A DNA stretch of 64,000 nt from a virus. Of the stretch, positions 2,353 to 57,232 are shown piece by piece. Both the position numbers and the translations under genes were made by a program. Each line of letters opens with the position of its first letter. Within the stretch, counting starts at the first letter, position 1. Location of the stretch: positions 1 through 64,000 of the IMG/VR virus record IMGVR_UViG_3300028591_000203. One strand, given 5' to 3'. The notes below the pieces were generated by a model that searched no databases, was not told the origin of the DNA, and saw only the letters and a list, made by a program, of their open reading frames with translations.

Positions 2353-2398
2353 ATTAACACCTTCCTTTTAAAAAATATAATAATAAATAGTTGTATCT

Positions 2399-2437: not shown

Positions 2438-2452
2438 AAAGGAGGGATTTTT

Positions 2453-2893: not shown

Positions 2894-2912
2894 GCTCCAT
2901 CATTTTTTTTTT
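2879..2912 (+). terminator. intrinsic terminator
   Basis: ggagctt/aagctcc stem followed by T10. Confidence 0.6.
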
Positions 2913-2955
2913 CTAAAACTTATAATTATTATATTCTTATTAAAGGAGTGATATT

Positions 2956-3264
2956 ATGAATAACTATGAAAAAGCTTTTATGGAAGGATATTTAGATGCA
3001 ATTCAAAGTATTGATGTCCTTTATAATAATGATGCTACTGATTGTGAAGAATGTAGTGAAGATGATTTTGATATGTATTCAGATGATGATTTTGACGAAG
3101 AATTAGATGAAGGTTTTGTAAGTGCCATGAGAGCAGTAATAGATAAACCAAGAAAAACAAATACTAATACTGCTTTAAAGAAAAGAGCTAAAGCACAAGC
3201 TAAATTCGATAAAGCTTTTGAAAAAATGAATAAAGCAGCTGGAGTTAGATATTGTTGTTATTAA
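2956..3264 (+). CDS. small acidic protein with N-terminal MNNYEKAFMEGYLDA motif (EGY-family, putative packaged internal protein)
   Basis: RBS AAAGGAGTG. N-terminus resembles the T4 capsid targeting sequence MKTYQEFIAE. Paralogous motif found in 5 other ORFs. Confidence 0.5.
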   Translation: MNNYEKAFMEGYLDAIQSIDVLYNNDATDCEECSEDDFDMYSDDDFDEELDEGFVSAMRAVIDKPRKTNTNTALKKRAKAQAKFDKAFEKMNKAAGVRYCCY

Positions 3265-3269
3265 TATTA

Positions 3270-3306
3270 ATAACCCTAATGGATTTAATCCATTAGGGTT
3301 TATTTT
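3270..3306. terminator. intrinsic terminator between convergent genes
   Basis: aaccctaatggat/atccattagggtt hairpin followed by TATTTT. Confidence 0.65.
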
Positions 3307-3664
3307 AAAACTTTCCTGAAATACCAATATGTCTTTGTTGCATAGTTCTTCCATCGGAAGAATATCTAGATGTATCTTGAATTGAATATCCTTTAGTTTT
3401 TCCATTATTTAAAATTTCACCTTTATATATCTTAGTACCTTTCTTTTTTTCAAAAATAGTAGTAGCTGCACGGGCTTTAGCTAAATTTCTTTTACGTTGT
3501 AAATCGCTACGTTCAGTTGTTCCCCAACCATGATATTTATCTCTCATACCACCTTTAGGGCCATTCATACCAAGTTTTCTTTGTTTTTCTTTAGTTATTT
3601 GTGAAGTTTCTAAAAATTCAATAGCATCATAATAACCTTCCATAAAAATTTCTTCGTATGTCAT
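3305..3664 (-). CDS. basic protein with N-terminal MTYEEIFMEGYYDAIEFLE motif (EGY-family, putative packaged internal protein)
   Basis: RBS TAAGGAAGTGA precedes the ATG of MTYEEIF; the ORF track starts 3 codons earlier. N-terminal motif shared with 2956 and 31962. Confidence 0.5.
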   Translation of the reverse strand: MTYEEIFMEGYYDAIEFLETSQITKEKQRKLGMNGPKGGMRDKYHGWGTTERSDLQRKRNLAKARAATTIFEKKKGTKIYKGEILNNGKTKGYSIQDTSRYSSDGRTMQQRHIGISGKF

Positions 3665-3732
3665 AGATATCACTTCCTTACTAAAATATTTTAATTATAA
3701 TAAATTAGTTTTGAGTATATATTATATTTATG

Positions 3733-3761
3733 ATTTTAATTAAAAATTTTTTAATTAAAAT
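3733..3761. promoter_or_regulatory. 29-nt AT-only near-perfect palindrome ATTTTAATTAAAA-A-TTTTTAATTAAAAT in divergent intergenic region
   Basis: Read directly from the sequence. Sits between the divergently transcribed 3305-3664 (minus) and 3791 (plus) genes. Confidence 0.4.
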
Positions 3762-3790
3762 ATTAATATTTATAATTAGGAGGTCAAATT

Positions 3791-4075
3791 ATGACACAGT
3801 ATATAGAAAATATAGTTATTGGAAATCCTATTGTTGAACCTAAAGAACTTCTTGCAAGAGATGATAAAGATTGGGAAGAAGTTGAAAAAGATAAAACTTT
3901 ATTTACAAATGAAAGATTTCTACCAAGATTATTAATAGAGCTTGGTGTATATAAGTCTATTAATGAAATTAGAAAGAATAAGCCAGAATTAGTTAAAGAA
4001 CTTAATGAAATAGATTATATTGATAAATTAAAAGTCTCTAAAAAGAGATTTCTTTGGATTGTAGTAGGTGAATAA
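3791..4075 (+). CDS. hypothetical protein
   Basis: ORF track. RBS AGGAGG 7 nt upstream. Immediately precedes sbcC and may be co-transcribed. Confidence 0.4.
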   Translation: MTQYIENIVIGNPIVEPKELLARDDKDWEEVEKDKTLFTNERFLPRLLIELGVYKSINEIRKNKPELVKELNEIDYIDKLKVSKKRFLWIVVGE

Positions 4076-4088
4076 GGAGGAATAAAAC

Positions 4089-14140: not shown

Positions 14141-14818
14141 ATGAAGGTTATGACTATGAAACAATTCTTACAGAATCCATCTGGAAGCTATTCTGCAAGT
14201 TTTGCAAGAAGAGATCTCATAATTGCTAATCTAGAAGATCGTTTTGCTAAACTTTATCAAAAAAGAAAGCAAGATTTTAAAATAAAAGTTTTTAGAGGAT
14301 CAAATAAAAATGATTTCTTTTTCTATATTCAAGTACCAAGTGAAAAATATGATAAGATTGTATATGATGTAGTAATACAATTTACACCATTAAATATATC
14401 AGCAATGTCCGCTCCAAATATAGATAATTATGGTGTAAAAGTATTTAGTAATAGTTTAAATTTTACATTTACATACTGTTATTGGTATAACCAAGATGGA
14501 ATTGTTATATCTCAGTTAAAAGACAAATTTTCTGGAAAAGCACTTACTGATAAACCAGTAGTTAAAAATAATGAAGGTATTTATGGTTTTGAAAAGTCAG
14601 TTTATTTCGCAATGCTTTTTATTAAATATAATGAACTTAATAAAAAAGCAAATATACTTAAAGTATTGGATAATAATATGACAATTGCTAAATTGAAACC
14701 ATCTATTAAAAGTGCTAATTCAAAGATTATTGAATATAATCTTACTAAAAAAGCAAATGGAGATGAAAATAAAAAAGCTAAGAAAAAAGGATTATCCAAT
14801 CAACCATTTAAGCTTTAA
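14141..14818 (+). CDS. hypothetical protein
   Basis: ORF track. RBS AAAGGAG. TTTAAATTTAAAT motif upstream. Confidence 0.4.
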   Translation: MKVMTMKQFLQNPSGSYSASFARRDLIIANLEDRFAKLYQKRKQDFKIKVFRGSNKNDFFFYIQVPSEKYDKIVYDVVIQFTPLNISAMSAPNIDNYGVKVFSNSLNFTFTYCYWYNQDGIVISQLKDKFSGKALTDKPVVKNNEGIYGFEKSVYFAMLFIKYNELNKKANILKVLDNNMTIAKLKPSIKSANSKIIEYNLTKKANGDENKKAKKKGLSNQPFKL

Positions 14819-14874
14819 AATATATATTATATATATGTCGAAAGACAAACTACGAATTAGGAGGAATATAATTT

Positions 14875-21108: not shown

Positions 21109-21147
21109 AGTATTAAAAATAATCATTAAATATATATTATAATTGTG
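21109..21147 (+). promoter_or_regulatory. conserved bipartite phage promoter, copy 2 (AGTATTAAA-N17-TATTATAATTGTG)
   Basis: Exact 17-nt spacing. Followed by RBS AAAGGAGG and the 21164 mini-gene. Confidence 0.55.
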
Positions 21148-21943: not shown

Positions 21944-22065
21944 ATACTCACCTCATTTATATTTTTTATAAAATATAAATTGCTGTTTTTACATATAATT
22001 TTTTTAAATATATATTATTTTAGTGATTAGTTGTAAGTTTCTTTTACCATTAAGGAGGGATGTGT

Positions 22066-26191: not shown

Positions 26192-26228
26192 TAGTCCAAC
26201 CCATTTATGGGTTGGACTAATTTTTTTA
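26192..26228. terminator. intrinsic terminator
   Basis: tagtccaaccc-attta-tgggttggacta followed by T8. Confidence 0.75.
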
Positions 26229-28475
26229 TTTATTTTTTAATCTTTCTTGTTTTATTCTATCTTTTATTCTAATTTTTTTAAGTTCCATATTATTGTCTAT
26301 AAGATAATCGTGTAAATTATCATTTGGTGTTAATTTACCAATCTTCAAATCATTAGATAATTGCTTTTTAGTGCTAGTTTGATACATATAATCTTTAGTC
26401 ATAAATGGAGTTAATAATCTTCCATCTACACCAATATCTTTTTTAGTTGGTATATAATTATCATCAACTATTATACAATTTTTCTTTAACATATCAATCG
26501 TCATTTGATATTTTTCTACTTTAGAATAATCAATATCATCTGTCTGTCTTATAGTAATACAATTAGGAGTATTAGAAGAGTGTCCTAGTCCTAATTCCAT
26601 ATCACTGTTTAACTGAATTGTATAAATATAAAATTCTAATAATTTTTTATTATATTTATGTAAATTATCTTTTAAATAATTATACACTGATTTAGTAATA
26701 ATCGGATTTTGAGAATTCTTACAACCTAAAATAGTTACATTTTCATCAATTTTCTTTAAGGTTTTTAATACTTCAAAACAACCCCATCCAATAGCTGATT
26801 TATATTTAGTCCAAGTATATAAAGAAAATCCTTCTTCTTGAAATATATTTCCAAAATCTAATCCAACGGATTTTAATTTTTTATAATATTCCTTAGAAGC
26901 ATGATAAACTTTTATAGGAAAATTAATAGATTCATTTAAATACTTCATTGGATCATTTTCTTTGTTTATTAATAAATAACATTTTCCATCATTAGTGCAA
27001 AATTCTAATTCTGCTGTTACTACTTTATCAGTCCAAATTTCATCATACATTTTAGAAATATCCTTAGTATAACCTTTATATAAAGTCCAATTATCTATTG
27101 GAATTACAAATTTTTTAATTTTTAAATCATTAAATTCTTTTTTAAGTAATTTTTTTAATTCATCATAATTATATTCATTTACAAAACCAATATAATAATC
27201 CATCGTTGTTCTAGTCCAGTTACAACCAAAACCGATTAAATCATCTTTATCAGTTAATTTACCCATACAATCCCAAAAATGACCAATTGTATTATATTGA
27301 TCTTCATTTTTTAAACTAAATTCTTTACCTATTCCAATAAATGTAATAAAATTATTTTTTGAATTGATAACTAAAGGTTTATTATTGTTTTGATATTTTC
27401 TAATAATATTTATAAATTCTTGAGTGGGATTTACAGGTTCTTTATAAGTTTTAATTAATTTTTTGTAATTTTCTCTATTAGTACAATTGAATAATTCAAG
27501 AGATTTTTTATCTGAAATTTCTTTTTGATTTGAATTCATTTCTTCCCAATTTCTCATAATTCTTTCAAGTTCTTCTTTGGACGGTTCTTTATGTATTAAT
27601 TCTATTCCAGTTTCAGCTCTCCATTTATGTACTGGATCTGATTTAAGTTTATTATACAGATTATTTCCATATTTTTGTTTAATTTCTTTTAAACTCATAG
27701 GTGGTTCATATTCTTCATTTAATTTTTTATTTAATTTAGGCATTTTTAAAGTTTTATTGAATCTATATCCATTCAGTTTCATCCATTCTTCAATATCATC
27801 ACCTGGTTGTAATGTTTTATCAATATTAATAGCTTGATACATTGCTTTTAAAAATTCTTTATCTTGTTGGATAAAATTTTTATCAAAAGCTAAGTTCATT
27901 ATTCCTCTATCTGGATAATTTTCTTCTTTATCCATTTCAATAAGTTCTTCTAATGATTTAATATCAAAATATTTATGAAAATTATTTTTAGTTAATGTAA
28001 ATTTATGAAGTTTAAAATCATTAATAGGTTTATCAACTGTATATTCATCTAAATGAGTAGTATTTCCTATACCAACTTCATTTATAGGTAATTTAAATTC
28101 ATATACATAAAATGGAATAGGTTTTGAAAGTAATTTATTAAAAACATAGTTAGAATTTTCTGTTGTAAAATGACCTTTAGATATATTACAATCAAATCCA
28201 ACTTTTTTTAATATTTTACCATCTTTTTCAATATTTCTTCTATATTCTCTTCTAAATGCTTGAAATGCGGCCCAATTTTTAGCTTTATTAAATTCTTTAA
28301 AACAGAATATAGACCAGGAAGGTTTTTCAAATCTATTTCCAAAATTTATACCAATAGGTTTTACAGTTTTAAATAAATCTGGAGAACCATGATATAAAGT
28401 AATTTCTTTATCAAAATAATTTTTAGATGCTATTCGTGTATATAAATGTTCATTAAAATATTCGCTCCAATTCAT
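26226..28475 (-). CDS. 749-aa protein with internally duplicated domain (LYHGSPDLF...GINFGNRFE // VYHASKEYY...GLDFGNIFQ)
   Basis: Two copies of a ~50-aa block read from the translation. The H-G-S/Y-Y context is reminiscent of H-Y-E ADP-ribosyltransferases, but this is unproven. Confidence 0.4.
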   Translation of the reverse strand: MNWSEYFNEHLYTRIASKNYFDKEITLYHGSPDLFKTVKPIGINFGNRFEKPSWSIFCFKEFNKAKNWAAFQAFRREYRRNIEKDGKILKKVGFDCNISKGHFTTENSNYVFNKLLSKPIPFYVYEFKLPINEVGIGNTTHLDEYTVDKPINDFKLHKFTLTKNNFHKYFDIKSLEELIEMDKEENYPDRGIMNLAFDKNFIQQDKEFLKAMYQAINIDKTLQPGDDIEEWMKLNGYRFNKTLKMPKLNKKLNEEYEPPMSLKEIKQKYGNNLYNKLKSDPVHKWRAETGIELIHKEPSKEELERIMRNWEEMNSNQKEISDKKSLELFNCTNRENYKKLIKTYKEPVNPTQEFINIIRKYQNNNKPLVINSKNNFITFIGIGKEFSLKNEDQYNTIGHFWDCMGKLTDKDDLIGFGCNWTRTTMDYYIGFVNEYNYDELKKLLKKEFNDLKIKKFVIPIDNWTLYKGYTKDISKMYDEIWTDKVVTAELEFCTNDGKCYLLINKENDPMKYLNESINFPIKVYHASKEYYKKLKSVGLDFGNIFQEEGFSLYTWTKYKSAIGWGCFEVLKTLKKIDENVTILGCKNSQNPIITKSVYNYLKDNLHKYNKKLLEFYIYTIQLNSDMELGLGHSSNTPNCITIRQTDDIDYSKVEKYQMTIDMLKKNCIIVDDNYIPTKKDIGVDGRLLTPFMTKDYMYQTSTKKQLSNDLKIGKLTPNDNLHDYLIDNNMELKKIRIKDRIKQERLKNK

Positions 28476-42167: not shown

Positions 42168-43676
42168 ATGAGTAAGATCATAGATGGCAAAATCATTCTA
42201 TACCCCACAAGAATAGTCATTGAACCTTATTTAGAAAAAAATTCAATTATTGAAAATTCTTTAAGTGTATATGATAAAGTTACTCACTCATATGGCTTTC
42301 AAGCATTTATTAAAGATGAAGTAAATAATCGATTGATTATTCCAACAGGGTATTCAGTTAATTATCTTTTAGGTATGTACCCAAGCTATAAAGTTGAAGA
42401 TAAACGTAATTCTATTGAAAATTATATTGCAGCTAATAGAAGTAAATATAAAATCAAAATGAAATACGATTGTAGAGATGATCTTCAAAGAGAAGCTGTA
42501 AAATTCTTAAATAAAAGAAAACCTAGAAGTAAATATAAGTATATGCAAAGATTTCTTTCTCTTAAAACTGGAGAAGGAAAAACTTTTTGCTCAGTAAAAT
42601 ATATTGCTGATAATAAAGAAAGACCTATTATATTTGTAGATCAGGATTCTTTAGGACAGCAATGGAAAGAACGAATTGTCGAATATACAGATACAACTGA
42701 AGATGAAATCTTTTATATTTCTGGATATAAATCTATTAATAAATTGATGAAAATGTCTTCAGATGATATTTTAAAAATTAAGTTTTTTATCTGTTGTTAC
42801 AGAACTCTTACTACAAATATTAAAAATAATGGAAATTCTAATGATATAAGTAAATTATTTGATAAAATCAAAATTACTATTAAAATATTTGATGAAGCTC
42901 ATGTTGAGTTTACATCTATATTTAAATTAGATATGATTTCTAATTTAAGAAGTATTTATTTATCAGCTACTCCAAAAAGAAGTGATCGTGCTGAAGATAA
43001 AGTTTATCAAAATATGTTTAGAAATGTTACTAAATTTTCATCAGATACTATTCAAGAAGAACCAGAGAATTATCATAATATAATTATTTATACTTGGAAT
43101 TCAAATCCAGATATGATGGATGAAGCAAATTGTCAAACAAAATATGGTTTTTCTATGTCAAGATATTGTGATTATCTAATGAAAAAGAAATATAATGAAT
43201 TTGAAGAATTCTTATATAGTGTAATTTTTGATACAGCATTATCTAATAGAAAGAAAAGAAAACTAGCAATTTTATTTGGAACAAATGCTTTACTTGATAA
43301 ATTCTATGATAGTTTGGTAGGATTTTGTGAATCAAATAAATATAAACTTAAAGTAAATAAATTTAATGGACAAACTAAGAAAGAAGATAAACTTACTTTA
43401 CTTGAAGAATCTGATATAATCATTACAACGGATAAATCTTTTTATAAAGGATTAGACGTTAAAGATTTACAAGTAGTAATTAATACAGTTCCTTTTACTG
43501 CTGATACAAAATTAATTCAAACAGTTGGAAGATTAAGAAAACTTCCAAATAAGGAAGTTACTTTTATTGATATAAATGATTTAGGCTATAAAACTTTAAG
43601 ATATCAAGAAGCTTCTAAGAAAACAGTTTTCTCTACATTAGCTAAAAGCTTATTTGTAGTAGATTATTATAAATAA
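42168..43676 (+). CDS. SF2 DEAH-box helicase (UvsW-like)
   Basis: Motif I LKTGEGKTF. Motif II IFDEAHVEF. Motif VI QTVGRLRK. Confidence 0.7.
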   Translation: MSKIIDGKIILYPTRIVIEPYLEKNSIIENSLSVYDKVTHSYGFQAFIKDEVNNRLIIPTGYSVNYLLGMYPSYKVEDKRNSIENYIAANRSKYKIKMKYDCRDDLQREAVKFLNKRKPRSKYKYMQRFLSLKTGEGKTFCSVKYIADNKERPIIFVDQDSLGQQWKERIVEYTDTTEDEIFYISGYKSINKLMKMSSDDILKIKFFICCYRTLTTNIKNNGNSNDISKLFDKIKITIKIFDEAHVEFTSIFKLDMISNLRSIYLSATPKRSDRAEDKVYQNMFRNVTKFSSDTIQEEPENYHNIIIYTWNSNPDMMDEANCQTKYGFSMSRYCDYLMKKKYNEFEEFLYSVIFDTALSNRKKRKLAILFGTNALLDKFYDSLVGFCESNKYKLKVNKFNGQTKKEDKLTLLEESDIIITTDKSFYKGLDVKDLQVVINTVPFTADTKLIQTVGRLRKLPNKEVTFIDINDLGYKTLRYQEASKKTVFSTLAKSLFVVDYYK

Positions 43677-43708
43677 ATATATATTATTATTGCGAAAGGA
43701 GGATTCTT

Positions 43709-47055: not shown

Positions 47056-48252
47056 TTATTTTTCCTGATCTGCAGTAGTATAATTTACATATCTAACCTT
47101 ATCAGCTATCCATTCTGCAATAATATAAACTACATATAATGTTGTAGCAACAGTTGTATAATTTGTTATATTACTTATAAAAATTGGGCCTACTAAACCA
47201 GCAATGGCCCAAGATGTTAATGATAATCCATGAATCTTTGAAATGTTTTTAGATCCATAAATATCTGACAGAAGAGAAGGAAGACAGCTAAATCCAGCTC
47301 CATATCCAGCAGCAATAACACAAAATGCGATAAATGTAATAGTAGGATTGGTCTTACCAATTGTAAAGATAACAGCTAAGGCTTCAAACATTGTTATGTA
47401 TCGATAAATATCAATTCTTTTCTTAAGTTTATCTGAAATAGTTGCAATTACAATTCTTCCTAATCCATTAAATATACCCATAACGCTTACTAATAATACT
47501 GGATTCATCTGAAATGAATTAGGATGTTCAGCATTAGTATTAATCATTAATGTTTTTGCTACAGAAATTAATGCAATTCCTGAAGCAATATTAATAAACA
47601 TAATTAGCCAAATCTTTCTAAAGTTTTTATCTTTCCACATTGACATCATTTTAAAATTAGAATTTTCAACTTCATCTTCTTTCCACCAAGAAGGTTTCTT
47701 AAGAAGCAAAGATGCAATAAACATTGGAATTAAATAAATAACTGCTAAATAAATGAATGTCTGTTCAAGGCTATAATGACTGATTAAATAATTATTTAAC
47801 CATGCTGCAATGGTACTAGCAAAACCAAATGCACATACAGCAATTCCTGTTGCAAGACCCTTATTATCCTTAAACCACAACATAAGAGTTTTAACAGGTG
47901 TAAGATATCCAGTTCCTAATCCAATTCCCATAATAACACCGTATCCTAAATAGATAAGTGCTATTGAATTAACATGAATACCTAAAGCAGTTAAAAGTAA
48001 ACCACTACAAAAGAAACCTAAACTTACTCTTGAAGAAACATGAATATTTCTTTCAACAAGTCTTCCTCCAAAAGCAGCAGACATTCCTAGAAAGAATATT
48101 GCTAAAGAGAATGCAAACTGAACAACTGAAGTGCTTTTGCCAATCTTATCGGCAATACTTGGAGCTAATGTGCTCCAAGCGTATACTGAACCAATTGATC
48201 CATGAATCAGAATTGCAGGTAAAGCACCATTTAACCATTTATTTTCTTTCAT
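47056..48252 (-). CDS. MFS transporter (oxalate/formate antiporter-like, 12 TM)
   Basis: Alternating hydrophobic helices throughout. Gly-rich MFS-type TM packing. 398 aa. Confidence 0.75.
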   Translation of the reverse strand: MKENKWLNGALPAILIHGSIGSVYAWSTLAPSIADKIGKSTSVVQFAFSLAIFFLGMSAAFGGRLVERNIHVSSRVSLGFFCSGLLLTALGIHVNSIALIYLGYGVIMGIGLGTGYLTPVKTLMLWFKDNKGLATGIAVCAFGFASTIAAWLNNYLISHYSLEQTFIYLAVIYLIPMFIASLLLKKPSWWKEDEVENSNFKMMSMWKDKNFRKIWLIMFINIASGIALISVAKTLMINTNAEHPNSFQMNPVLLVSVMGIFNGLGRIVIATISDKLKKRIDIYRYITMFEALAVIFTIGKTNPTITFIAFCVIAAGYGAGFSCLPSLLSDIYGSKNISKIHGLSLTSWAIAGLVGPIFISNITNYTTVATTLYVVYIIAEWIADKVRYVNYTTADQEK

Positions 48253-48894: not shown

Positions 48895-49117
48895 TTTCTT
48901 TTATCCCTTCTATATAATTTTCAACTAAATTATTTTTTTCAATATTATAAAATGTAAAAGTGTTTTTAGCTTTCATTTCTTTAATATAATTTTCTAAAGC
49001 ACCTTTAACACTTTCTTCACTATAAAATCTACCATTTCTATTTATTGAGCCACTCATCTTACTTGTTAAATCGTTTAAAATTGAAATATCGTGTAATACA
49101 GCATTCTTCTTATCCAT
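48884..49117 (-). CDS. hypothetical small protein
   Basis: ORF track. Confidence 0.3.
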   Translation of the reverse strand: MDKKNAVLHDISILNDLTSKMSGSINRNGRFYSEESVKGALENYIKEMKAKNTFTFYNIEKNNLVENYIEGIKENGK

Positions 49118-49119
49118 AT

Positions 49120-49641
49120 TTACACCACCAATTTTACCTTTAAAACAAATGATGTAATATCATTTATTACATTATTATTAGATTCATCACGATGACAATG
49201 ACCTCTAATGACTAAATAATATTTATCAATATTAGATTTTTGCATTTTAAATTGTTTTGCCATTGATGTATTTAATAATTTAAAACTAATATACACTTTA
49301 TTTCCAATAGAAAAACAACTTTTGAATGTACCTATTACAGATGTTGGATTAATACAAAAATTGTTTTCTGGAAAAGGACCACCTGTATGAATAAGTATAT
49401 TATTAGAGTTTACTCTTTCTAAAAAACTTTCATTGGTTAAAATATATGATTTTATTTGATCTAAAGTTATTTCATTTTCAGGAATTAACATAAGAGGTAA
49501 TGTACATATTTCATCATCATTTTCCTCTTTTTCAATTAGTTTTTCAACCTTTTTATTAATTTCTGTAAAATGATCTTTATTATCAGTAGTAATTGAAATA
49601 TTATATTTACCGTTAGTAAAAGTTGCAGTACTTTCAATCAT
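49120..49641 (-). CDS. hypothetical protein
   Basis: ORF track. Confidence 0.4.
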   Translation of the reverse strand: MIESTATFTNGKYNISITTDNKDHFTEINKKVEKLIEKEENDDEICTLPLMLIPENEITLDQIKSYILTNESFLERVNSNNILIHTGGPFPENNFCINPTSVIGTFKSCFSIGNKVYISFKLLNTSMAKQFKMQKSNIDKYYLVIRGHCHRDESNNNVINDITSFVLKVKLVV

Positions 49642-49657
49642 TTCAAAACCTCCATTC

Positions 49658-49867
49658 TTATAATAAAGATAAATATTGATTTACTATACAATTAGTAAAT
49701 TCAAAATATTTGAAAGGTTCTTCTGCTTTTAATATTTCTATCCCTATTGGTTGATATTCAAAATGTTCATAATGCTCTAAACTAATAATTGGTGGCGGTG
49801 GTGGCTGACCTACTGGTATACTTTTTTTATCATAAAGTTTTATTTTCTGTTTATATAATTTATTCAT
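49658..49867 (-). CDS. hypothetical small protein (PPPPP motif)
   Basis: ORF track. Confidence 0.3.
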   Translation of the reverse strand: MNKLYKQKIKLYDKKSIPVGQPPPPPIISLEHYEHFEYQPIGIEILKAEEPFKYFEFTNCIVNQYLSLL

Positions 49868-49885
49868 AAATATCTCCTATATAAA

Positions 49886-49920
49886 AAAAGAAAGGGCGAA
49901 ATTAATCGCCCTTTCTTTAT
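49886..49920 (-). terminator. intrinsic terminator (minus strand)
   Basis: aaagaaagggcga-aattaa-tcgccctttcttt with a T-run on the minus strand. Confidence 0.7.
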
Positions 49921-49925
49921 ATTAA

Positions 49926-52106
49926 TTAAAAATAACACTTTTCATAAGTTGTCTTTACATTCATAACAAGATCCTTGTCAAGAAGCTTATCGTGTCCAGT
50001 ATAAGTCTTTACTTCATCCTTCTTTGTATCTGCAAGCTTAGCAGGATCAAACCACTTACCACAAAGAACCTTTGCAATTCTGATACCAGCAAGCTTAGCT
50101 CTTGTCTCTGCAAGAAGAGCCTTAAGTGAATCAAGAACTACTTCTGACTCAAAATCAGACTTATGAGAGAATGCTTCTACAAGATAAGCATCACCATTTG
50201 CTGGCTTTTCAATCATAGGCATATTCTTATCATCAAACTTAATTGAGGAAAGCTTGTTGAATCCCTTAAGAGAGAATTCAAATGATCTTGCCATATAATA
50301 ATCACTGTCTTCTACAGAAGGTACAGAAGTACTGATACCGTTATAGATACCATTCTTAATTCCATACTCTTCAAGAAGAGCACACTGCTCATCAGTGTAC
50401 TTAGTCTGCTCCCAAGTCTTCTTAGTATCCTTAGTGAGTTCCTTTGCAAGCTTAAGCTGTGCCTTATACTTATTTTCCTTTCTTACAAGGTCAAATACTG
50501 TTTCGATATCAGCATTACCCATTCCTGCATTAACAATTGGAATCTTAGTAAGATCAATTGTCATGTAAGTCTTATCGTCCTTACCTTCAATGCTAGTTAC
50601 TGCATAATCAAAGTGCTTCATGATATCACTTGCTGTTCTCTGATTTACAATAACATTAAGCTCTTCCATGTTAAGGAATCCATCCTTTACAATTGTATGA
50701 TTACGGAAAATCTTACAATCATATTCTGGATTAAGGCCAACATTCTTTGCCTGTTTTGGATTAATTGAAACAGTTCCAGGAATCTCAAAGCCAATTGAAA
50801 TATTAAGCTTAGATGCATTATACGTAATATTTTCAATAGGTGAAGTATTCTCCTCATACTTCTTCTTGAACATATTGAAAGAGTCTGTAGTTGCTCTACC
50901 AATTCTCTTATAGTTGTTATTTACAACATAAAGATTTTCCTTGCTCTGTGTAAGAATTGCAAGAAGATTAACAAGACAAGGAGTATTTTCATCAGGTACA
51001 TAATTTGCTGGAGCAGTACCCTTATTTCTATCCTTATTTCTGAATGCAGCATTCTTAAGCTTCTTCTTGAATTTTTCAATCTCATCAGGAGTAAATGCTG
51101 CAATCTGAGCATCAGTCATAGGCTTATCTGCAAGAGACTTACCAAGAATGCACATTGCGGTATATCTATCTCCAAAGCAATATTCAGCAAGAGCAAGCTT
51201 ATACATAATAGCATCAATTCTTGTTGAGGGAATAGTCTTATTACCACCGTCATTAAAATCTTCGCCATTTACTGTTCCTGTAAGATTTCCACCATCATTT
51301 ACAACAACAAACTGGTTGGTCTTCTTATCAATATGATTAAGAGAAACCTTTTCATGATACTTACTTACATTATTAGAAGTAAAATAGTAAATATCTGCAC
51401 CAGGAATAGTGATCTCTACACTATCCTTCTCAAGATTTCTTGCTCTCTCAGCATTCTCTTCAAAAATAGTATGATACTCATCAATCTTTGAAGAATGAAT
51501 GAACTGACCGAAGTTTGAAGTAGATGCCCACTTATTAAGGACATCTTCATCACAATAGTTGCCATAACCAATTGTGTTGAAGGCGATAATCTTATCCTTA
51601 ATTCTGTCAAGTACAGCCTGTACTCTATTATGCTCTTCTGTAGTAGACCAAGGAGTAACAGCACAACCATCTGTAAATAGTGTTACAGAAAAGTTAGGAC
51701 AAAGTGCTGTAAGTTCATCAACAATTCTTTCAGTCTCTTCAACTGATTCTGAGAAGCAAGTACAACCAACTGTACTCTTAAGAGAATCAAGAACTCTGAA
51801 AGAAGATTCCTGATTTACAGGATCATTCTTAATACCCTTAAGAACTGTTCTAAACTCTCCTGCAGATGAGAACCAAATTACTGTGTAATAATCAGTACTG
51901 TTCATCTGTGTGATAGTCTTCTTACAGTCTTCCATAAGCTGATCAATGCTATGCCACATTGAACCAGATCTATCTAGAATCTGGATGTGATGAATTGAGT
52001 CTGGAATCTTCTTCTCTTCTACCTTATCCTTCTTATAGTCAAGAAGCCATACACTTTTGTCACCACCAGCCACGTTCATGATTTTAGACATTACTTTAAT
52101 ACTCAT
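49926..52106 (-). CDS. von Willebrand factor A (vWA) domain protein, 726 aa
   Basis: N-terminal MIDAS motif IQILDRSGSM (DxSxS) followed by a conserved T and D in VLDSLKSTVGCTCFSESVEETERIVDELTALCPNFSVTLFTDG. GC-richer codons. Confidence 0.6.
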   Translation of the reverse strand: MSIKVMSKIMNVAGGDKSVWLLDYKKDKVEEKKIPDSIHHIQILDRSGSMWHSIDQLMEDCKKTITQMNSTDYYTVIWFSSAGEFRTVLKGIKNDPVNQESSFRVLDSLKSTVGCTCFSESVEETERIVDELTALCPNFSVTLFTDGCAVTPWSTTEEHNRVQAVLDRIKDKIIAFNTIGYGNYCDEDVLNKWASTSNFGQFIHSSKIDEYHTIFEENAERARNLEKDSVEITIPGADIYYFTSNNVSKYHEKVSLNHIDKKTNQFVVVNDGGNLTGTVNGEDFNDGGNKTIPSTRIDAIMYKLALAEYCFGDRYTAMCILGKSLADKPMTDAQIAAFTPDEIEKFKKKLKNAAFRNKDRNKGTAPANYVPDENTPCLVNLLAILTQSKENLYVVNNNYKRIGRATTDSFNMFKKKYEENTSPIENITYNASKLNISIGFEIPGTVSINPKQAKNVGLNPEYDCKIFRNHTIVKDGFLNMEELNVIVNQRTASDIMKHFDYAVTSIEGKDDKTYMTIDLTKIPIVNAGMGNADIETVFDLVRKENKYKAQLKLAKELTKDTKKTWEQTKYTDEQCALLEEYGIKNGIYNGISTSVPSVEDSDYYMARSFEFSLKGFNKLSSIKFDDKNMPMIEKPANGDAYLVEAFSHKSDFESEVVLDSLKALLAETRAKLAGIRIAKVLCGKWFDPAKLADTKKDEVKTYTGHDKLLDKDLVMNVKTTYEKCYF

Positions 52107-52187
52107 AAATTAATTCCTCCTAAAAAGTTTAAAATAATATATGGTAAAGATTCACTTTACCATATATATAATATAAGTTTATTTTTA

Positions 52188-52679
52188 TTAATCAAAATAT
52201 TTACATATAAATAAATTGATATTTTCTTCATTTCCAAAGATTTCTACAAATAATGGAAGAACTTCTTCATCCCAATTACCATCAGCTAATCCACATCCAT
52301 ATTTATAAGGAATTGCTAAAGTACAACCATTTGGAAATGCATGTTTAGCTTCTTCTTTGATTTTATTAAAACAAGTTTTAATTCCTTCAAGATCAGTATG
52401 TCTTTCATTTCTAAGATTTACTCCTCTTTGTGTAAAGCAATTAAGAATTAATTGTCTTTTATTTAATTTTTCATTGTATACTTTACAAGGAATAAATTCT
52501 CCAATAATATCATTATTTTTATTCATTGTACAGAATTGTTTATATGACATTACTGCTTCTGGATACTTGGTAGAAATCTGTGCGGCTAATCCTGCTCCCA
52601 TAATACCAATAGTATTAACCTGATGAGCAATCATATCTACATCTTGTTCTAATATATCTCCTTTAATAAAAGTAACCAT
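52188..52679 (-). CDS. macro domain protein (ADP-ribose binding / ADP-ribosyl hydrolase fold)
   Basis: GDILEQDVDMIAHQVNTIGIMGAGLAAQI matches the macro signature GDI-x-DAIVNAAN-x-L-x-GGGV-x-AI. Confidence 0.6.
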   Translation of the reverse strand: MVTFIKGDILEQDVDMIAHQVNTIGIMGAGLAAQISTKYPEAVMSYKQFCTMNKNNDIIGEFIPCKVYNEKLNKRQLILNCFTQRGVNLRNERHTDLEGIKTCFNKIKEEAKHAFPNGCTLAIPYKYGCGLADGNWDEEVLPLFVEIFGNEENINLFICKYFD

Positions 52680-52719
52680 ATTATCAATCCTTTCTATATA
52701 TTGTATATATAAAGGTGTT

Positions 52720-53148
52720 TCACTTTTTCTTTTTTAGCTCTTCTCTAACTTTCATTAGAATTTTTCCAAGATGATTTTCTCCGACACCATTTACTGTACC
52801 CCAAATGGTATCACCCCAATTATTACCCTCTTCAAGAATTATATTTCCTGTTTTAATTAACTTTTTTGCAAGATTAGGATTTTGTTCAAATTTAGCTTTA
52901 ACTATTTCATACATAATTGGAAATTTAAGAGTATCCCAATTATCTCTAAGTCTAACTTTTCTTCCTAACTTTTTTCCTTTTTCTGGTTTAAGTGTTGCAA
53001 ATTCTTCTCTCATTTCAATGTCAGTTGTTTTTTGTGCTTGAAAAGCACATTCTGCATTACGATATTTAATTCCATCATAAATTATTGGACAACTATAAAA
53101 ATTACTTAAAAAGAAATATTCATCTCTAAATGAATCAATCTTTTTCAT
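52720..53148 (-). CDS. NADAR (YbiA-like, DUF1768) domain protein
   Basis: YFFLSNFYSCPIIYDGIKYRNAECAFQAQK and the C-terminal NHLGKILMKVRE match NADAR family hallmarks. Confidence 0.7.
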   Translation of the reverse strand: MKKIDSFRDEYFFLSNFYSCPIIYDGIKYRNAECAFQAQKTTDIEMREEFATLKPEKGKKLGRKVRLRDNWDTLKFPIMYEIVKAKFEQNPNLAKKLIKTGNIILEEGNNWGDTIWGTVNGVGENHLGKILMKVREELKKKK

Positions 53149-53209
53149 AACTTATCCTCCTTGAAATTTTGATTATAAATATGAGTTATTTTAAAAATTT
53201 ATTTTTAAT

Positions 53210-53248
53210 CGTATTAAATAATCATACCAAATATGTATTATAATTGTG
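53210..53248 (+). promoter_or_regulatory. conserved bipartite phage promoter, copy 5 (CGTATTAAA-N17-TATTATAATTGTG)
   Basis: Exact 17-nt spacing. 78-nt leader with a ttggga/tcccaa stem. Confidence 0.55.
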
Positions 53249-53325
53249 GTTGGGAGAACTCTCACATACTTAGCTGACCGACTTTGTATGTTCCCAATAC
53301 AGTATAGGTCAATGGAGGTACTATT

Positions 53326-53754
53326 ATGGTATCCAACATCGTTATTTTCGAACGGTCAAAGGTGGCCGTTCGAGAAGCGCTTCAGGCTGCCAATAAAATG
53401 GCTAGTGGTCTGAAGATGCTTCAGACAACTGATATGCCAGGAGATTATCCTCCTGCATATCTCATTATTTCCGATGAACTGACTGCGCAGACAGTTTGCG
53501 CAATTAGCACTCATCGAAAGAATGATCATTTGGTTTTAAGAGTATGGTCGCCCTTTACCGAGACTATTGTTAATGAAGATGGTAGTCTCGGTAAAGATCA
53601 GCCTCATTACGATTTTGAGTACCGTAACGAGGCTGATTTCGATGGTAATGCCAGAGAGATTGGTCGGTTAATCTGGCATTATAACAAACTCCTGTGGGAT
53701 TGGCATATGACCTATTCGCAGGACTTTGAGTGTTTTGATCTTGACAAAGATTAA
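53326..53754 (+). CDS. hypothetical protein, promoter-cassette gene (about 45% GC)
   Basis: RBS GGAGGTACTATT. No recognisable family. Confidence 0.45.
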   Translation: MVSNIVIFERSKVAVREALQAANKMASGLKMLQTTDMPGDYPPAYLIISDELTAQTVCAISTHRKNDHLVLRVWSPFTETIVNEDGSLGKDQPHYDFEYRNEADFDGNAREIGRLIWHYNKLLWDWHMTYSQDFECFDLDKD

Positions 53755-53759
53755 GTAAG

Positions 53760-53945
53760 ATCAAAGAAAGTTTATACCTTGTACTTTAAAACAAGGAGTT
53801 TCCTGTATACTGCGATAGGGCAACCAAGTAGTATACTGAAAATAAAAGAGGTTTATGCACTGTACCTCTGCGGTGAAAACAGTGAGTTTAAATGATGTGA
53901 TAGAGTAGGCGGTCCTCTATCACATCATTTTCTATATTTTTTTTT
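53760..53945 (+). ncRNA. candidate structured RNA / long 3' UTR ending in a strong intrinsic terminator
   Basis: No ORF in this region. Four hairpins: ccttgt/acaagg, gtatact/agtatac, cactgt/acagtg, and gatgtgatagag/ctctatcacatc followed by T9. Confidence 0.3.
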
Positions 53946-54136
53946 ATAAAAATTCTTTTTAAATATATATTATTGCTATGGTTATAATAACCAAATATCT
54001 TTAGGAGGATTGAAAAATGTACAATTTTTATCATGGACCAGAAGATGAAGAAAACTACAACGATGAGTTAGGTTATCCAGATGAAGATAACTATGGAGAC
54101 GAAGATTAATATAAATAAGTAAGGAGAAAATTTATT

Positions 54137-55273
54137 ATGGCTGATATGAATATTATTAATGTAGGTACTGAGTTTAATATCTACCGTGCAGATTCTGTAA
54201 AGACATTTAAGAAACTTCCAACACAGATTTATAAGATCTGTTTTCAGAAGTTCAAGGGATTCTACCTTGATACTTATCAGGGTCTAGACATCAAAGAGAA
54301 AGTCTATGGTGTCCATCAGAATAAAGTAAATAAAGTGATTAACTCATTTAATCATTTTGAAAGAAGCCTTGGTGTAATCCTGTCAGGAGATAAGGGAATT
54401 GGTAAGTCTCTGTTCTCAAAGATGCTTGCACAGGAGTGTCTTAAGCAGGATATCCCTGTAATTGTGGTAGATGCATGGTATCCTGCAATTGCAGATTTTA
54501 TTGAGTCCATCCAGCAGGAAGTGATGATTCTGTTTGATGAGTTCGATAAGACTTTTGGTGAGGTTAACACTCCTGAAGGATCTGCAACCCCTCAGACAGA
54601 ACTTCTTAGTCTCTTTGATGGTATTTCAACTACTACAAAGAGATTATATGTCATTACTTGCAATGAGCTTAGAAAGCTTAATGACTATCTAGTAAATCGT
54701 CCTGGTAGATTCCACTATCACTTCAGATTTGAGTATCCAACGTCTGAAGAGGTAAAGCTTTATCTTGAAGAAAAGGTTGACCCCAAGTATCATGATCAGA
54801 TTACAGATGTAATCGGATTTACAAAGAGAACTGATATCAACTATGATTGCCTTAGAGCAATTGCTTTCGAACTCAATATGGGTTCAACATTTAAGGAAGC
54901 AATTAGAGATCTTAATATTCTTAATATTAATGACACTTCCGCTTATACAATCAAGGTTTTCTTCGAGGATGGCTCTTCTGTAACTCGTAAGAAGTATAGA
55001 ATGAATCAGGACGACGAGTATGAGAGCAATTGCTGGTTCAGTCCTGATAAGGGAGAAAACGAATTTATCTGCTGTGAATTTACTCCATCAGATATTGCTT
55101 GGGATGAGAAGCTGTTTAAGTATGCTCTTATGCCAGATCAGTTCAAATATTGGTGTGACGAAGATTATTGTAAGGATGATCCTGAACTCTTCAAGTCATA
55201 CAACAACAAGAAGCCTATCTACATGACATTTGAAAGAGACTTTAAGGTAGATAGAATGCACTATGCTCTTTAA
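54137..55273 (+). CDS. classic-clade AAA+ ATPase
   Basis: Walker A GDKGIGKS. Walker B ILFDEFD. Second region of homology with VNRPGRFHYHFRF matching the AAA Arg-finger consensus RPGRFD. Confidence 0.7.
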   Translation: MADMNIINVGTEFNIYRADSVKTFKKLPTQIYKICFQKFKGFYLDTYQGLDIKEKVYGVHQNKVNKVINSFNHFERSLGVILSGDKGIGKSLFSKMLAQECLKQDIPVIVVDAWYPAIADFIESIQQEVMILFDEFDKTFGEVNTPEGSATPQTELLSLFDGISTTTKRLYVITCNELRKLNDYLVNRPGRFHYHFRFEYPTSEEVKLYLEEKVDPKYHDQITDVIGFTKRTDINYDCLRAIAFELNMGSTFKEAIRDLNILNINDTSAYTIKVFFEDGSSVTRKKYRMNQDDEYESNCWFSPDKGENEFICCEFTPSDIAWDEKLFKYALMPDQFKYWCDEDYCKDDPELFKSYNNKKPIYMTFERDFKVDRMHYAL

Positions 55274-55283
55274 TTAGTGATAA

Positions 55284-55313
55284 AGGGAGAGTTTAACTCT
55301 CCCTTTATTTTTT
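55284..55313 (+). terminator. intrinsic terminator
   Basis: agggagagtt-taa-ctctccct followed by TTATTTTTT. Confidence 0.75.
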
Positions 55314-55333
55314 ATAAGAAAGGAATGATTTGT

Positions 55334-56041
55334 ATGATCCAGAAGGATAGAATTGAAAGAGATATCGATGAAATGACAATGGCACAGATTAAGGTTTACA
55401 TCGAAGATCTAAAACAGACGATCTATCATATGGCTGAAACAATGGAAACTATCAATAGTACCTATAAAATGGTACAAAATGATCTTAACGAATTTTCTGG
55501 TATCAAAAGTGCTAAAGATCCAAATACTGTTAAAAGAGTAACAGGTTTTAATGCACCTTTAAAGAAAAGTCCTCCAACTAATTTGGATGAAGCATTCTCG
55601 AATGCTACTGACGAATCTTTGGATGAATCATTTGATCCAGACAATCCAGATGAAGATGATGAAGTAGAATTTGGAAATAATTATCCAGACTATGTAACTC
55701 ATCCAAATAAAACAGATAATGAAAACGATGATATACCTAACAGTCAATATGTTGCACTATTTAAATATACAGTATTAGGAGATGCAGATACAGCTATTAT
55801 TTCTCCAGATGGAAGATATTACACTGTATTTTCTGTAGAGCCTGATAATTTTGCAGAAATTGAAAGCTTTACTGAATACTTACCATATTACTATTTTGAT
55901 CATATTCCAAGTGTAAGTGAATTAAAAGAAATATGGAAACAGTTCTGCAATGAATTTGATACAACAGAAAACAGTGATGGATTTGAACTTAAAACAGTTG
56001 AGTTGGTAGACTCAGATAAAAATAAAAGAGTAATTATGTAA
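55334..56041 (+). CDS. hypothetical acidic protein
   Basis: The ORF track frame starts at 55277, inside the terminator. The likely start is the ATG after AAGAAAGGA. Confidence 0.4.
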   Translation: MIQKDRIERDIDEMTMAQIKVYIEDLKQTIYHMAETMETINSTYKMVQNDLNEFSGIKSAKDPNTVKRVTGFNAPLKKSPPTNLDEAFSNATDESLDESFDPDNPDEDDEVEFGNNYPDYVTHPNKTDNENDDIPNSQYVALFKYTVLGDADTAIISPDGRYYTVFSVEPDNFAEIESFTEYLPYYYFDHIPSVSELKEIWKQFCNEFDTTENSDGFELKTVELVDSDKNKRVIM

Positions 56042-56115
56042 AATGCAAATATGTTTGTTTATACCCTCTTTATAAGAGTAGTCTAAACAACATTTTTATA
56101 AAGGGGGTCGTTATA

Positions 56116-56394
56116 ATGAAGGTATTTGTTAAACATTATTTTGATACAAATATTAATAGCTTTCTTCAAGAAGTATTTGTTGAAGGAAATTATGATAATG
56201 GTATCATGAACATAACTGAAACAAGAAGTCAATACATCAAAGATAGAAATGTTGATATTATAACATTTAACCGAAATTTTACATTAAAAGAATTAGACGA
56301 CTTTATCAAAAATACATCATTTAATTCAGAGCAAAAACTAATTTATGAATATGCTTTAAATTATATGAAAGAAAAAGAAAATCCTAAAAGCTAA
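56116..56394 (+). CDS. hypothetical small protein
   Basis: ORF track. RBS AAAGGGGG. Confidence 0.4.
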   Translation: MKVFVKHYFDTNINSFLQEVFVEGNYDNGIMNITETRSQYIKDRNVDIITFNRNFTLKELDDFIKNTSFNSEQKLIYEYALNYMKEKENPKS

Positions 56395-56564
56395 AAGCTT
56401 TTAGGATTTTATATTAAATTTGGAGTTTAGAAGAAAGTGAAGAAAATAAAAATGATAAACAAAATAAAAAAGTATATTACAAGTGAAGATTTTAAAATGT
56501 GGATGATTACTCTAGGTATTGGAGCAATCATCTTTATCTATACATATATCAAGGAGGTTTTAAT

Positions 56565-56882
56565 ATGAAAAATATTAATGTCAATTATATTACAGGTTCT
56601 CCTTATGATACAAAAGAGGTAGTTGACACTCTTATTAATAACGAAATTCTTTTTACTATAGCAAATTTTGGTAGTATTGATGGAATGACACCATTTAAGA
56701 TCAATCTTATAGATGCAAACTATTCTCAAGAAGAGTTAAAGAAGCTTTGCTTCATGCTTCAAAGACAAATGGATGATATGAGAATGGAGCATGTATATAT
56801 TGTCTTAGAAAATAATAAGATTATTAATATTCAACCAGGAATCGATAATATTGATAAACTTATTAAGGAGGTATTTATATGA
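56565..56882 (+). CDS. hypothetical small protein
   Basis: RBS AAGGAGG then ATG at 56565; the ORF track starts at 56499. Confidence 0.4.
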   Translation: MKNINVNYITGSPYDTKEVVDTLINNEILFTIANFGSIDGMTPFKINLIDANYSQEELKKLCFMLQRQMDDMRMEHVYIVLENNKIINIQPGIDNIDKLIKEVFI

Positions 56883-57232
56883 TCAGACAAAAAGAAGGAT
56901 ATAATAAAAATCTTAAAAAGATAAAAAAGCAAAAAAACTATAAGAAAAGACTTATCAATAAAATGAAAAGTTTAAATAATTCATATATTATTGATAATGA
57001 TAGTTATTATGGAAAAAGTTCAAATCATCCTTCAAATGGTGAAACATACTCTATTGGAAGTGGCCGATATTTTAAGATTCTTGATTCTGATGGAGTAATC
57101 AAAACATATATCAATCATTCAAAGATTTTTCATTATCGTGAAGATAAAAGAATGGTTGAAAAAATGCGAAGACAAAGATTAAAACGGTTAGGCGATATCA
57201 ATATTACTAACAAAATCTGGAAAAATATTTAA
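56879..57232 (+). CDS. hypothetical basic protein
   Basis: Start overlaps the previous stop (ATGA). Confidence 0.4.
   Translation: MIRQKEGYNKNLKKIKKQKNYKKRLINKMKSLNNSYIIDNDSYYGKSSNHPSNGETYSIGSGRYFKILDSDGVIKTYINHSKIFHYREDKRMVEKMRRQRLKRLGDINITNKIWKNI

Follow-up and report, generated by a model that had tools for sequence, protein, structure and literature searches.

Introduction

Two adjacent genes of an uncultured phage, one for a NADAR protein of the YbiA fold and the other for a macrodomain, are the subject of this study. They lie in a 64-kb stretch of DNA (positions 1-64,000 of IMG/VR record IMGVR_UViG_3300028591_000203), referred to here as the window. The components of the pair are already known from AdfN (2025), AdfM (2025, 2026) and SCO6735 (2022), and the presence of both enzymes in one phage is known from T4. 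What is specific to the window is the tight two-gene arrangement, the combination of a Glu-type NADAR with a Gln-type macrodomain, and the background of an AR9-like Firmicute phage.

The described enzymes divide the labour between them: NADARs clear ADP-ribose (ADPr) from guanine, not from thymine, and TARG1-like macrodomains clear it from thymine and uracil, including deoxyuridine (dU) in single-stranded DNA (ssDNA) (PMC11125620, PMC11833690, PMC13036486). The phage NADAR AdfN(Bas32), acting alone, neutralises DarT1 and restores the plaquing of three phages on DarTG1 hosts, with no effect on DarTG2; phages Bas32 and Bas33 encode it in identical form (PMC11825919). As in the window, a single T4 genome holds a NADAR (AdfN, gp30.3) and a macrodomain (AdfM, Tk.4), which act against DarTG1 and DarTG2, respectively (PMC11825919; preprint 10.1101/2025.11.20.689424). 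Tk.4 was found to be required for growth on DarTG2 hosts by a transposon screen and a clean deletion, and was named AdfM (preprint 10.1101/2025.11.20.689424). Another phage macrodomain, AdfM (gp104) of PhiKZ, is an anti-DarT factor of the Lys type, with N23 and K78 (PMC13309987). Among bacterial enzymes, SCO6735 of Streptomyces coelicolor removes DarT-made thymidine-ADPr efficiently and protects cells from DarT, and is inactive as Q85A or Q85E (PMC9411070).

At the level of genomes, Iyer et al. (2022) found that Macro and NADAR genes co-occur in DNA viruses above chance, with some viral fusions and an enrichment in myoviruses and jumbo phages (PMC9503650). These authors favoured soluble ADPr derivatives as the substrates of most phage Macro, NADAR, SLOG and Nudix genes (PMC9503650). 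We also read a 'defence module' paper in Nucleic Acids Research (2025) for an earlier account of the pair; its subject is PARG with an RNA ligase rather than a macrodomain with a NADAR.

Results

A NADAR gene and a macrodomain gene on one strand

The two genes, as established from their open reading frames (ORFs), family profiles and predicted folds, are:

52720..53148, minus strand: NADAR (YbiA-fold) gene, 142 aa, no N-terminal extension
52188..52679, minus strand: ALC1/TARG1/DarG-class macrodomain gene, Gln-type, 163 aa

Both ORFs are present where a reading of the DNA letters without database searches (hereafter the sequence-only reading) had placed them, and their translations contain the motifs that it had quoted. 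A gap of 40 bp separates them, and a Shine-Dalgarno sequence precedes each. Plus-strand ORFs overlap both genes, and we take these to be spurious; strong homologs exist for the minus-strand ORFs. The family assignments made in the sequence-only reading are also borne out, by matches far beyond chance that are detailed in the next two sections.

The NADAR gene

The product of the upstream gene is a member of the NADAR superfamily and, within it, of the YbiA subfamily. It matches Pfam PF08719 with E=2.2e-26 and 93.5 bits (gathering score 35.1) and TIGR02464 with 78.2 bits (cutoff 73.7), and in the PDB it finds E. coli YbiA (2b3w, E=1.4e-18) and the ADPr-bound Phytophthora structure PnNADAR (8bau, E=1.9e-9). 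Its AlphaFold model, built on a 40-sequence alignment, has a predicted local distance difference test (pLDDT) score of 95.5, and the only significant Foldseek matches of this model in the PDB are the same two proteins, YbiA with a template modelling (TM) score of 0.86 and PnNADAR with 0.77.

The active site is intact. The residues through which PnNADAR contacts ADPr are E43, K50, R79, W89, R93, E125, D130 and W133 (PMC11543638), and by alignment their equivalents in the window NADAR are E33, K40, R63, W71, K75, E107, D113 and W116. All of these contact positions are conserved and most are invariant across the family alignment; E33 and K40, the distal-ribose Glu and the phosphate-binding Lys, are invariant in the 40 NADAR homologs. 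This pair aligns with E88/K95 of the E. coli C7 NADAR, which are mutationally essential, and with E36/K43 of T4 AdfN (PMC11543638; PMC11825919). In this gene, every ADPr-binding and catalytic residue is kept.

The residue on the last strand separates the subfamilies: Glu in YbiA, Asp in DarT1-linked DarG1/BC4488 and His in T4 gp30.3 (PMC11125620). The window NADAR has Glu here (E107, aligned with PnNADAR E125 and invariant in the family), which makes it YbiA-type, and T4 30.3 has His at this position in our alignment as well. Membership of DarG1 was considered and rejected, given the Glu in place of Asp, the missing basic N-terminal extension and the lack of an adjacent darT1.

Among characterised enzymes, the window NADAR most resembles AdfN(Bas32). 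A tblastn search of phage genomes leads to Escherichia phage HildyBeyeler, whose locus tag bas33_0070 identifies it as BASEL phage Bas33. The identity to AdfN(Bas32) is 41% over 97% of the length (E=8e-36), and both are stand-alone phage NADARs (about 145 aa in AdfN(Bas32)) that have no adjacent toxin and share the E/K pair and the last-strand Glu. They differ in that AdfN(Bas32) belongs to a T5-like phage of a host from another phylum, whereas the window phage is AR9-like and the activity of its enzyme is predicted. In Bas33, no macrodomain gene is annotated among the ten neighbours shown, five of which are labelled 'hypothetical protein'. T4 AdfN is more distant, being of the His-type gp30.3 subfamily and aligning with the window NADAR over the N-terminal 60 residues only, at 28% identity. 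Taken as a phage-encoded orphan with an intact catalytic site, the window NADAR is most likely an AdfN-type enzyme, with a predicted activity on guanine-ADPr.

The macrodomain gene

The downstream product belongs unambiguously to the ALC1/TARG1/DarG class of macrodomains. It has no Pfam match at E<0.01, and of its close homologs 6 in 14 have a precomputed match to PF01661, marked 'weak' where looked up; the Pfam Macro model is insensitive to this clade. On the other hand, PHROG 335 matches with E=6e-27, and the best NCBIfam and PADLOC matches are to DarG, over the macro part of the models only (for NCBIfam, 56.7 bits against a cutoff of 250, covering model positions 2-144 of 338). A profile of the 15-sequence family finds BT1257 (8e-17), Mycobacterium tuberculosis DarG (2e-16), TARG1 (1e-15), SCO6735 (1.7e-14) and Poa1p (2.5e-13). 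The structure model (pLDDT 90.8) has as its top Foldseek matches the DarG proteins of Thermus aquaticus and M. tuberculosis, SCO6735, BT1257 and TARG1, with TM 0.71-0.82 (top PDB entries 5m3e, 5m3i, 5e3b, 2fg1 and 4j5s).

Its key residues are H19, N22, G28-x-G30, N80-C-F-T-Q84, P124-Y-K-Y-G-C-G130, A132 and W136, and the two glycine-rich loops that bind ADPr and phosphate, G28-x-G30 and G128-x-G130, are conserved in the family. The catalytic position differs from that of the best-known members. Where DarG has K80 and TARG1 K84 (the 'TKK' motif), the window protein reads T83-Q84, and A132 stands in place of TARG1 D125; this replacement of the DarG/TARG1 Lys by Gln, which is also found in the functional SCO6735 and T4 AdfM, had been missed in the sequence-only reading. 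In the alignment, Q84, A132, H19 and N22 correspond to Q85, 'AHVCN' and 'GCGLAGG' of SCO6735 and to 'AHGCN' and 'YTQ' of T4 Tk.4. The same Gln is present in 39 of 40 distinct viral homologs. In an exhaustive homolog search, which returned 5,164 clusters at E<=1e-3, 150 representatives had Q at this position in 146 cases, N22 in all 150 and H19 in 137. The active site is therefore under selection, with Q in 146/150 and N22 in 150/150, and by sequence the phage-borne clade to which this gene belongs is very large and uniformly Gln-type. A reading of the missing Lys as the mark of a dead enzyme was rejected: SCO6735 and T4 AdfM function with the same Gln, which is nearly invariant in the clade.

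Several characterised macrodomains come close to the window protein, each with its own differences. With SCO6735 and BT1257 it shares the Gln at the K80/K84 position, the Ala at TARG1 D125, H-x-x-N and GCGLAxGxW (PMC9411070), at Foldseek TM 0.75-0.82. These two are chromosomal bacterial genes, not phage genes, and only about 20-22% identical; the window family further differs from them in its PYKYGCG motif with a one-residue insertion. In SCO6735, an extended mobile loop and Lys34/Lys89 position the DNA; the window protein has an insertion at about residues 86-92, absent from its closest relatives, where SCO6735 and BT1257 have this loop. T4 Tk.4 has the Gln-type site (NLYTQ against NCFTQ in the window), H-x-x-N and G-x-G...NW, at 26% identity (E=3e-8). 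PhiKZ AdfM and the DarG2 macrodomain are of the same class, N22 of T. aquaticus DarG being equivalent to N22 of the window protein (PMC13309987; PMC5179494), and PhiKZ AdfM is likewise an orphan encoded by a jumbo phage. Unlike the window protein, however, PhiKZ AdfM (K78) and T. aquaticus DarG (K80) have Lys where it has Gln, and DarG2 has a C-terminal DarT-binding domain. Membership of DarG2 was rejected on account of Gln84 instead of Lys, the macro-only length of 163 aa without this domain, and the lack of a darT2 nearby.

The pair is not a conserved module

The sequence-only reading had presented the pair as a two-enzyme module, and comparison with other phages does not support this claim. 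In the sibling contig L002, which comes from another sample (ENA ERZ27257205 k141_3483716; its positions 1371-1560 compare with window 52640-53248), the macrodomain gene is 99% identical and the upstream intergenic block is kept, but the NADAR gene with its ribosome-binding site is precisely absent, about 35 bp standing where the window has 52700-53162. The genomes of AR9 and PBS1 each hold a NADAR gene (55% identical) and a macrodomain homolog (33% identical); in PBS1 these lie 39 kb from each other, and T4 has 67 kb between its two genes, compared with 40 bp on one strand in the window. A NADAR gene lies within 6 kb of the macrodomain gene in 2 of 42 macrodomain-bearing viral loci, and an ALC1-type macrodomain gene within 6 kb of the NADAR gene in 7 of 80 NADAR-bearing viral loci, always 1.7-5 kb away. 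Direct adjacency was found in none of these 42 and 80 loci, as judged by local hidden Markov models that cover relatives of these subfamilies only. For the 144 genes immediately beside a NADAR, Pfam annotation reveals no recurring Macro family among the top 25 of 63 families, a count in which a single macrodomain neighbour could be hidden. A conserved macrodomain-NADAR module was rejected on the NADAR-less sibling, the spacing of 39-67 kb in AR9, PBS1 and T4, and this lack of adjacency elsewhere. The evidence says that the two are independent accessory genes that happen to adjoin in the window.

The region around them is a local hotspot of gene-content variation. Beyond the intergenic block, the AAA ATPase gene of L002 has a DNA identity of only 66% to that of the window, and a different ORF, of 128 aa, stands in place of the 142-aa ORF. 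The junction sequence fits either direction of the NADAR indel, a gain in the window or a loss in L002. The nearest macrodomain homolog adjoins a gene for single-stranded DNA-binding protein in a prophage replication module.

Relatives of the NADAR gene were also seen in other contexts. A 60%-identical NADAR (contigs L129-L131, 6001-6450) has as its neighbours, in a block that resembles a mobile element, a DNA methylase, a RecJ-like DHH protein, a DUF5710 topoisomerase and a Mob_Pre relaxase. The exact sequence of this NADAR recurs in 116 listed blocks of the collection (24 contigs were read), and it may serve a conjugative or mobilisable element as an anti-defence gene. A 65%-identical NADAR (L132, 6001-6441; Logan SRR15221299, Ruminococcus-type) has a housekeeping context, inside an arginine-biosynthesis operon with the order argG, argH, argC, argJ, argB, NADAR, argD, argF. 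Finally, on a 419-kb contig (L050, IMG/VR UViG_3300021400_000141, 2303-6426), a Gln-type macrodomain gene is followed by nicotinamide adenine dinucleotide (NAD)-synthetase-like, SLOG/YpsA-like and small ORFs and then by a 210-aa NADAR with an N-terminal extension, and the layout is similar in L049 and L051-L053. The middle ORFs are candidates identified from motifs (e.g., an SGGADS PP-loop for the NAD-synthetase-like one), and the layout looks like an NAD/ADPr island of huge phages. Relative to the neighbourhoods of Iyer et al., the window pair is a tight two-gene minimal form without SLOG, Nudix or NAD-salvage partners.

Partner genes in the window

A domain scan was run on 68 window ORFs of at least 77 aa, nearly all of them at least 100 aa, and found no ADP-ribosyltransferase (ART), DarT, RNA-ligase, Tpt1/KptA, riboflavin, NAD-salvage, SLOG or Nudix domain among them. 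The NADAR and macrodomain genes are orphans in the sense that no DarT or other ART stands beside them.

The sequence-only reading had named the 749-aa ORF at 26226-28475 (minus strand) as a possible ART and had described it as internally duplicated. The ART proposal finds no footing, with no match of this ORF in Pfam, PHROG or the PDB and with homologs that carry GNAT or HAD domains, never ART. The duplication is real: residues of about 13-162 and 510-660 align with the same region of two homologs (P0136 and P0137). It is also weak, and self-BLAST of the ORF gives nothing at E<=1e-3. The widely conserved part of the ORF is a stretch of about 90 aa (251-340), common to GNAT/HAD multidomain proteins of 600-1300 aa on jumbo-phage-sized contigs.

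Layout of the locus

Around the two genes, the following features were read from the sequence or from the comparison with the related contigs:

53163..53248, no strand: divergent intergenic block, 88% conserved in L002
53156..53162, minus strand: Shine-Dalgarno AAGGAGG of the NADAR gene, sequence read
52700..53162, minus strand: NADAR cassette, present in the window and in contig L001, with about 35 bp in its place in L002
52137..52167, minus strand: terminator-like hairpin, a 13-bp stem followed by a T-run, 21 nt past the macrodomain stop codon

The gene pair sits between a conserved gene for a von Willebrand factor A (vWA) domain protein and a divergent 142-aa ORF with an AAA ATPase. Its GC content is 26-28%, compared with 33-40% in the conserved neighbours, a low value that is typical of accessory genes. 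Terminator-like sites such as the one that follows the macrodomain gene number 6 in the window against 1.8 expected.

The intergenic block probably holds the promoter of the NADAR-macrodomain unit, and we infer from the sequence that co-transcription of the two genes from this upstream region is plausible. We considered two candidate promoters for the gene pair in this block and rejected both assignments. The first, a sigma-70-like site (GTGAGA-17-TATAAT) at 53265-53237 on the minus strand, belongs to a class that shows no enrichment in the window over shuffled sequence and matches at chance level. The second, an AR9-type early-promoter motif with one mismatch at 53229-53241, is oriented the other way: on the plus strand it faces the divergent 142-aa ORF, away from the pair.

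The flanking genes are an AAA+ ATPase upstream (54137-55273, plus strand, PHROG 2376) and, downstream, the 726-aa vWA-domain protein (49926-52106, minus strand, PHROG 2426), which is 34% identical to AR9 gp067 (annotated vWA). Ahead of the vWA gene stands an AR9-early-promoter-like motif, AAACTTATATTAT (52180-52168), overlapped by the hairpin that follows the macrodomain gene; in AR9, too, early promoters precede the vWA gene. Just past the vWA gene, at 49887-49918 on both strands, is a perfect hairpin with a 13-bp stem and with A-runs and T-runs at its sides, which is terminator-like in both directions.

The phage

The window, which represents 64 kb of a probably >200-kb genome, encodes a split multisubunit RNA polymerase, a divergent family-B DNA polymerase, a primase, an SbcC-like nuclease and a T4-type prohead protease. 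The longest contig listed for an identical macrodomain protein has 66 kb. The polymerase and vWA protein of the window share about 35% identity with their counterparts in Bacillus phages AR9 and PBS1, and megablast of window positions 49000-57000 against 50,697 phage records gave no match. By protein comparison, the best explanation of this gene content is an AR9/PBS1-like jumbo phage of a low-GC Firmicute.

The exact 13-mer of AR9 early promoters, AAATATATATTAT, occurs five times, compared with 0.09 expected:

14818-14830, 21128-21140, 22006-22018, 43675-43687 and 53961-53973, all plus strand: copies of AAATATATATTAT, identical to annotated AR9 early promoters

Four of these copies (14818, 22006, 43675 and 53961) were checked, and each precedes a plus-strand ORF by 21-163 bp. 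The AR9-type early-promoter consensus thus seems to be conserved in the window phage despite a protein identity of about 35%.

Other genes complete the picture. A 398-aa ORF (47056-48252, minus strand) matches the transporter model of the Major Facilitator Superfamily over its full length (PF07690, E=2.3e-26); for a lytic-type jumbo phage, a membrane transporter is unusual cargo. Products recognised among the window ORFs of at least 100 aa also include a member of the dCMP/cytidine deaminase family, an NrdG-like radical-SAM activase and an SPFH/Band-7 protein, whereas the 64 kb showed no thymidylate synthase. This gene content is compatible with a uracil-DNA lifestyle like that of AR9 and PBS1, but is no evidence for one.

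Discussion

We favour an explanation in which the gene pair serves counter-defence by removing base-linked ADP-ribose from phage DNA, from guanine through the NADAR and from thymine or uracil through the macrodomain, and we put its probability at about 60%. In this explanation, the two genes would form a small, probably co-transcribed accessory unit of two mechanistically unrelated nucleic-acid de-ADP-ribosylases, both of them orphan 'antitoxin-like' erasers. The NADAR would split ADP-ribose from guanine at the N-glycosidic bond in the product of DarT1-type toxins or of other guanine ARTs (e.g., YarT or ScARP-like). The macrodomain, as an AdfM-type enzyme, would take ADP-ribose off N3 of thymine, or of uracil, in the product of DarT2-type toxins, by the lysine-independent, Gln-dependent mechanism reported for SCO6735. 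With both enzymes at work, phage ssDNA would stay clear of the two known classes of base ADP-ribosylation during replication. The foundations of this explanation are observed: both genes are present, their folds are recognisable, their catalytic residues are conserved, they are homologous to validated enzymes, and they are separable from each other. From these we infer what the substrates, the in vivo role and the timing of the pair may be. Of the functions offered in the sequence-only reading, counter-defence against DarT-type toxins is the best supported, with the 41% identity to AdfN(Bas32) on one side and the Gln-type kinship with T4 AdfM/Tk.4 and SCO6735 on the other. The context counts in its favour too: both genes are orphans of low GC content, the nearest macrodomain homolog has single-stranded DNA-binding protein as its neighbour, and the 60%-identical NADAR is found in a mobile element with a relaxase and a topoisomerase.

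A number of observations weigh against this explanation. The NADAR belongs to the YbiA type, and its score passes the cutoff of a riboflavin N-glycosidase model. The macrodomain shares no more than 20-26% identity with validated enzymes and has a resemblance to the ADPr-1''-phosphatase Poa1p, and the DNA-positioning Lys34 of SCO6735 corresponds to Ala29 in the window protein. ALC1, a non-catalytic binder, likewise has Gln at the catalytic-Lys position in our alignment. The sibling phage without the NADAR means that the pair is not obligately coupled, and the explanation presupposes a host that carries a DarT. Lastly, hydrolysis of guanine-ADPr by a NADAR in vitro does not guarantee protection in vivo (PMC11125620).

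A different class of substrate would be soluble molecules derived from NAD or ADPr rather than DNA adducts, with immune signals such as the cyclic ADPR isomers of Thoeris, ADPr-1''-phosphate, O-acetyl-ADPr or products of NAD breakdown as candidates. The match of the macrodomain family profile to Poa1p (E=2.5e-13) points this way, as do the 'phosphatase' and 'Appr-1-p processing' labels that PHROG 335 and GenBank give to its relatives, and in the jumbo-phage loci L049-L053 a macrodomain relative and a NADAR bracket the candidate NAD-synthetase-like and SLOG/YpsA-like ORFs, a layout that fits the NAD/ADPr islands of PMC9503650. All tested close relatives, however, act on adducts of nucleic-acid bases, namely AdfN(Bas32), T4 AdfN, T4 AdfM, SCO6735 and DarG (PMC11825919, PMC9411070, preprint 10.1101/2025.11.20.689424), and the 68 scanned window ORFs include no NAD-salvage, SLOG or Nudix domain. 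The degradation of Thoeris or sirtuin-linked signals, which the sequence-only reading had also proposed, has no specific support in the window. NADARs, moreover, are N-glycosidases, and we know of no reported activity of theirs on cyclic ADPR. We regard soluble substrates as unlikely.

A more specialised form of the DNA-repair idea is that the two genes make up a purpose-built, co-transcribed operon for dual-specificity de-ADP-ribosylation, of guanine as well as pyrimidine adducts, in a phage with dU-DNA, with the macrodomain as a dedicated deoxyuridine-ADPr hydrolase. Cultured AR9/PBS1-like phages replace thymine with uracil, and SCO6735-like enzymes are reportedly better on uracil than DarG. 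If this were true, DarT2-like toxins could attack dU-DNA phages, and phages would answer with SCO6735-like enzymes; we consider it a doubtful proposition, with the odds well against it.

Housekeeping would be an improbable role for the pair. Here the NADAR would act, like YbiA, as an N-glycosidase against reactive intermediates of the riboflavin pathway and destroy them, and the macrodomain would be an Appr-1''-p phosphatase for a by-product of RNA repair. The model TIGR02464, 'riboflavin biosynthesis intermediates N-glycosidase', is indeed exceeded (78.2 bits against 73.7), E. coli YbiA is the best PDB match, and the 65%-identical NADAR of the Ruminococcus arginine operon is found among housekeeping genes. 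Set against this, the scan detected neither riboflavin genes nor RNA-ligase or Tpt1/KptA genes in the window. Guanine-ADPr is hydrolysed in vitro by E. coli YbiA too (PMC11125620), AdfN(Bas32), whose function has been validated, has the same YbiA/Glu type, and the presence or absence of the NADAR between sibling phages fits an accessory gene of an arms race.

The remaining suggestion, put forward as the alternative in the sequence-only reading, is that the hydrolases reverse, tune or recycle ADP-ribosylation by an ART of the phage's own, with the 749-aa ORF as the candidate. It draws on T4, which encodes the ARTs Alt, ModA and ModB as well as AdfN and AdfM, with alt about 3 kb from gene 30.3, and on the two paralogous domains of the ORF, each starting with an hYH(G/A)S-like strand faintly reminiscent by motif of H-Y-E ARTs. 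We consider it very improbable. The ORF lies 24 kb from the gene pair, has no match in Pfam, PHROG or the PDB and has GNAT/HAD homologs, and none of the 68 scanned ORFs has an ART domain, within a 64-kb stretch that leaves room for an ART elsewhere in a genome of probably >200 kb.

The current understanding of phage ADP-ribose erasers is unchanged by the locus described here, because T4 carries both enzymes and large phages were already reported in 2022 to carry Macro and NADAR together (PMC9503650). If our assignment is right, the pair adds, in an uncultured AR9-like jumbo phage, another natural case of phages capturing antitoxin-like erasers against DarTG-type immunity. With a phage macrodomain clade that is essentially all-Gln, most phage AdfM-like enzymes would use the mechanism of SCO6735, not that of DarG. 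Sibling genomes with and without the NADAR cassette, in turn, provide a ready-made comparison for anti-DarTG1 function.

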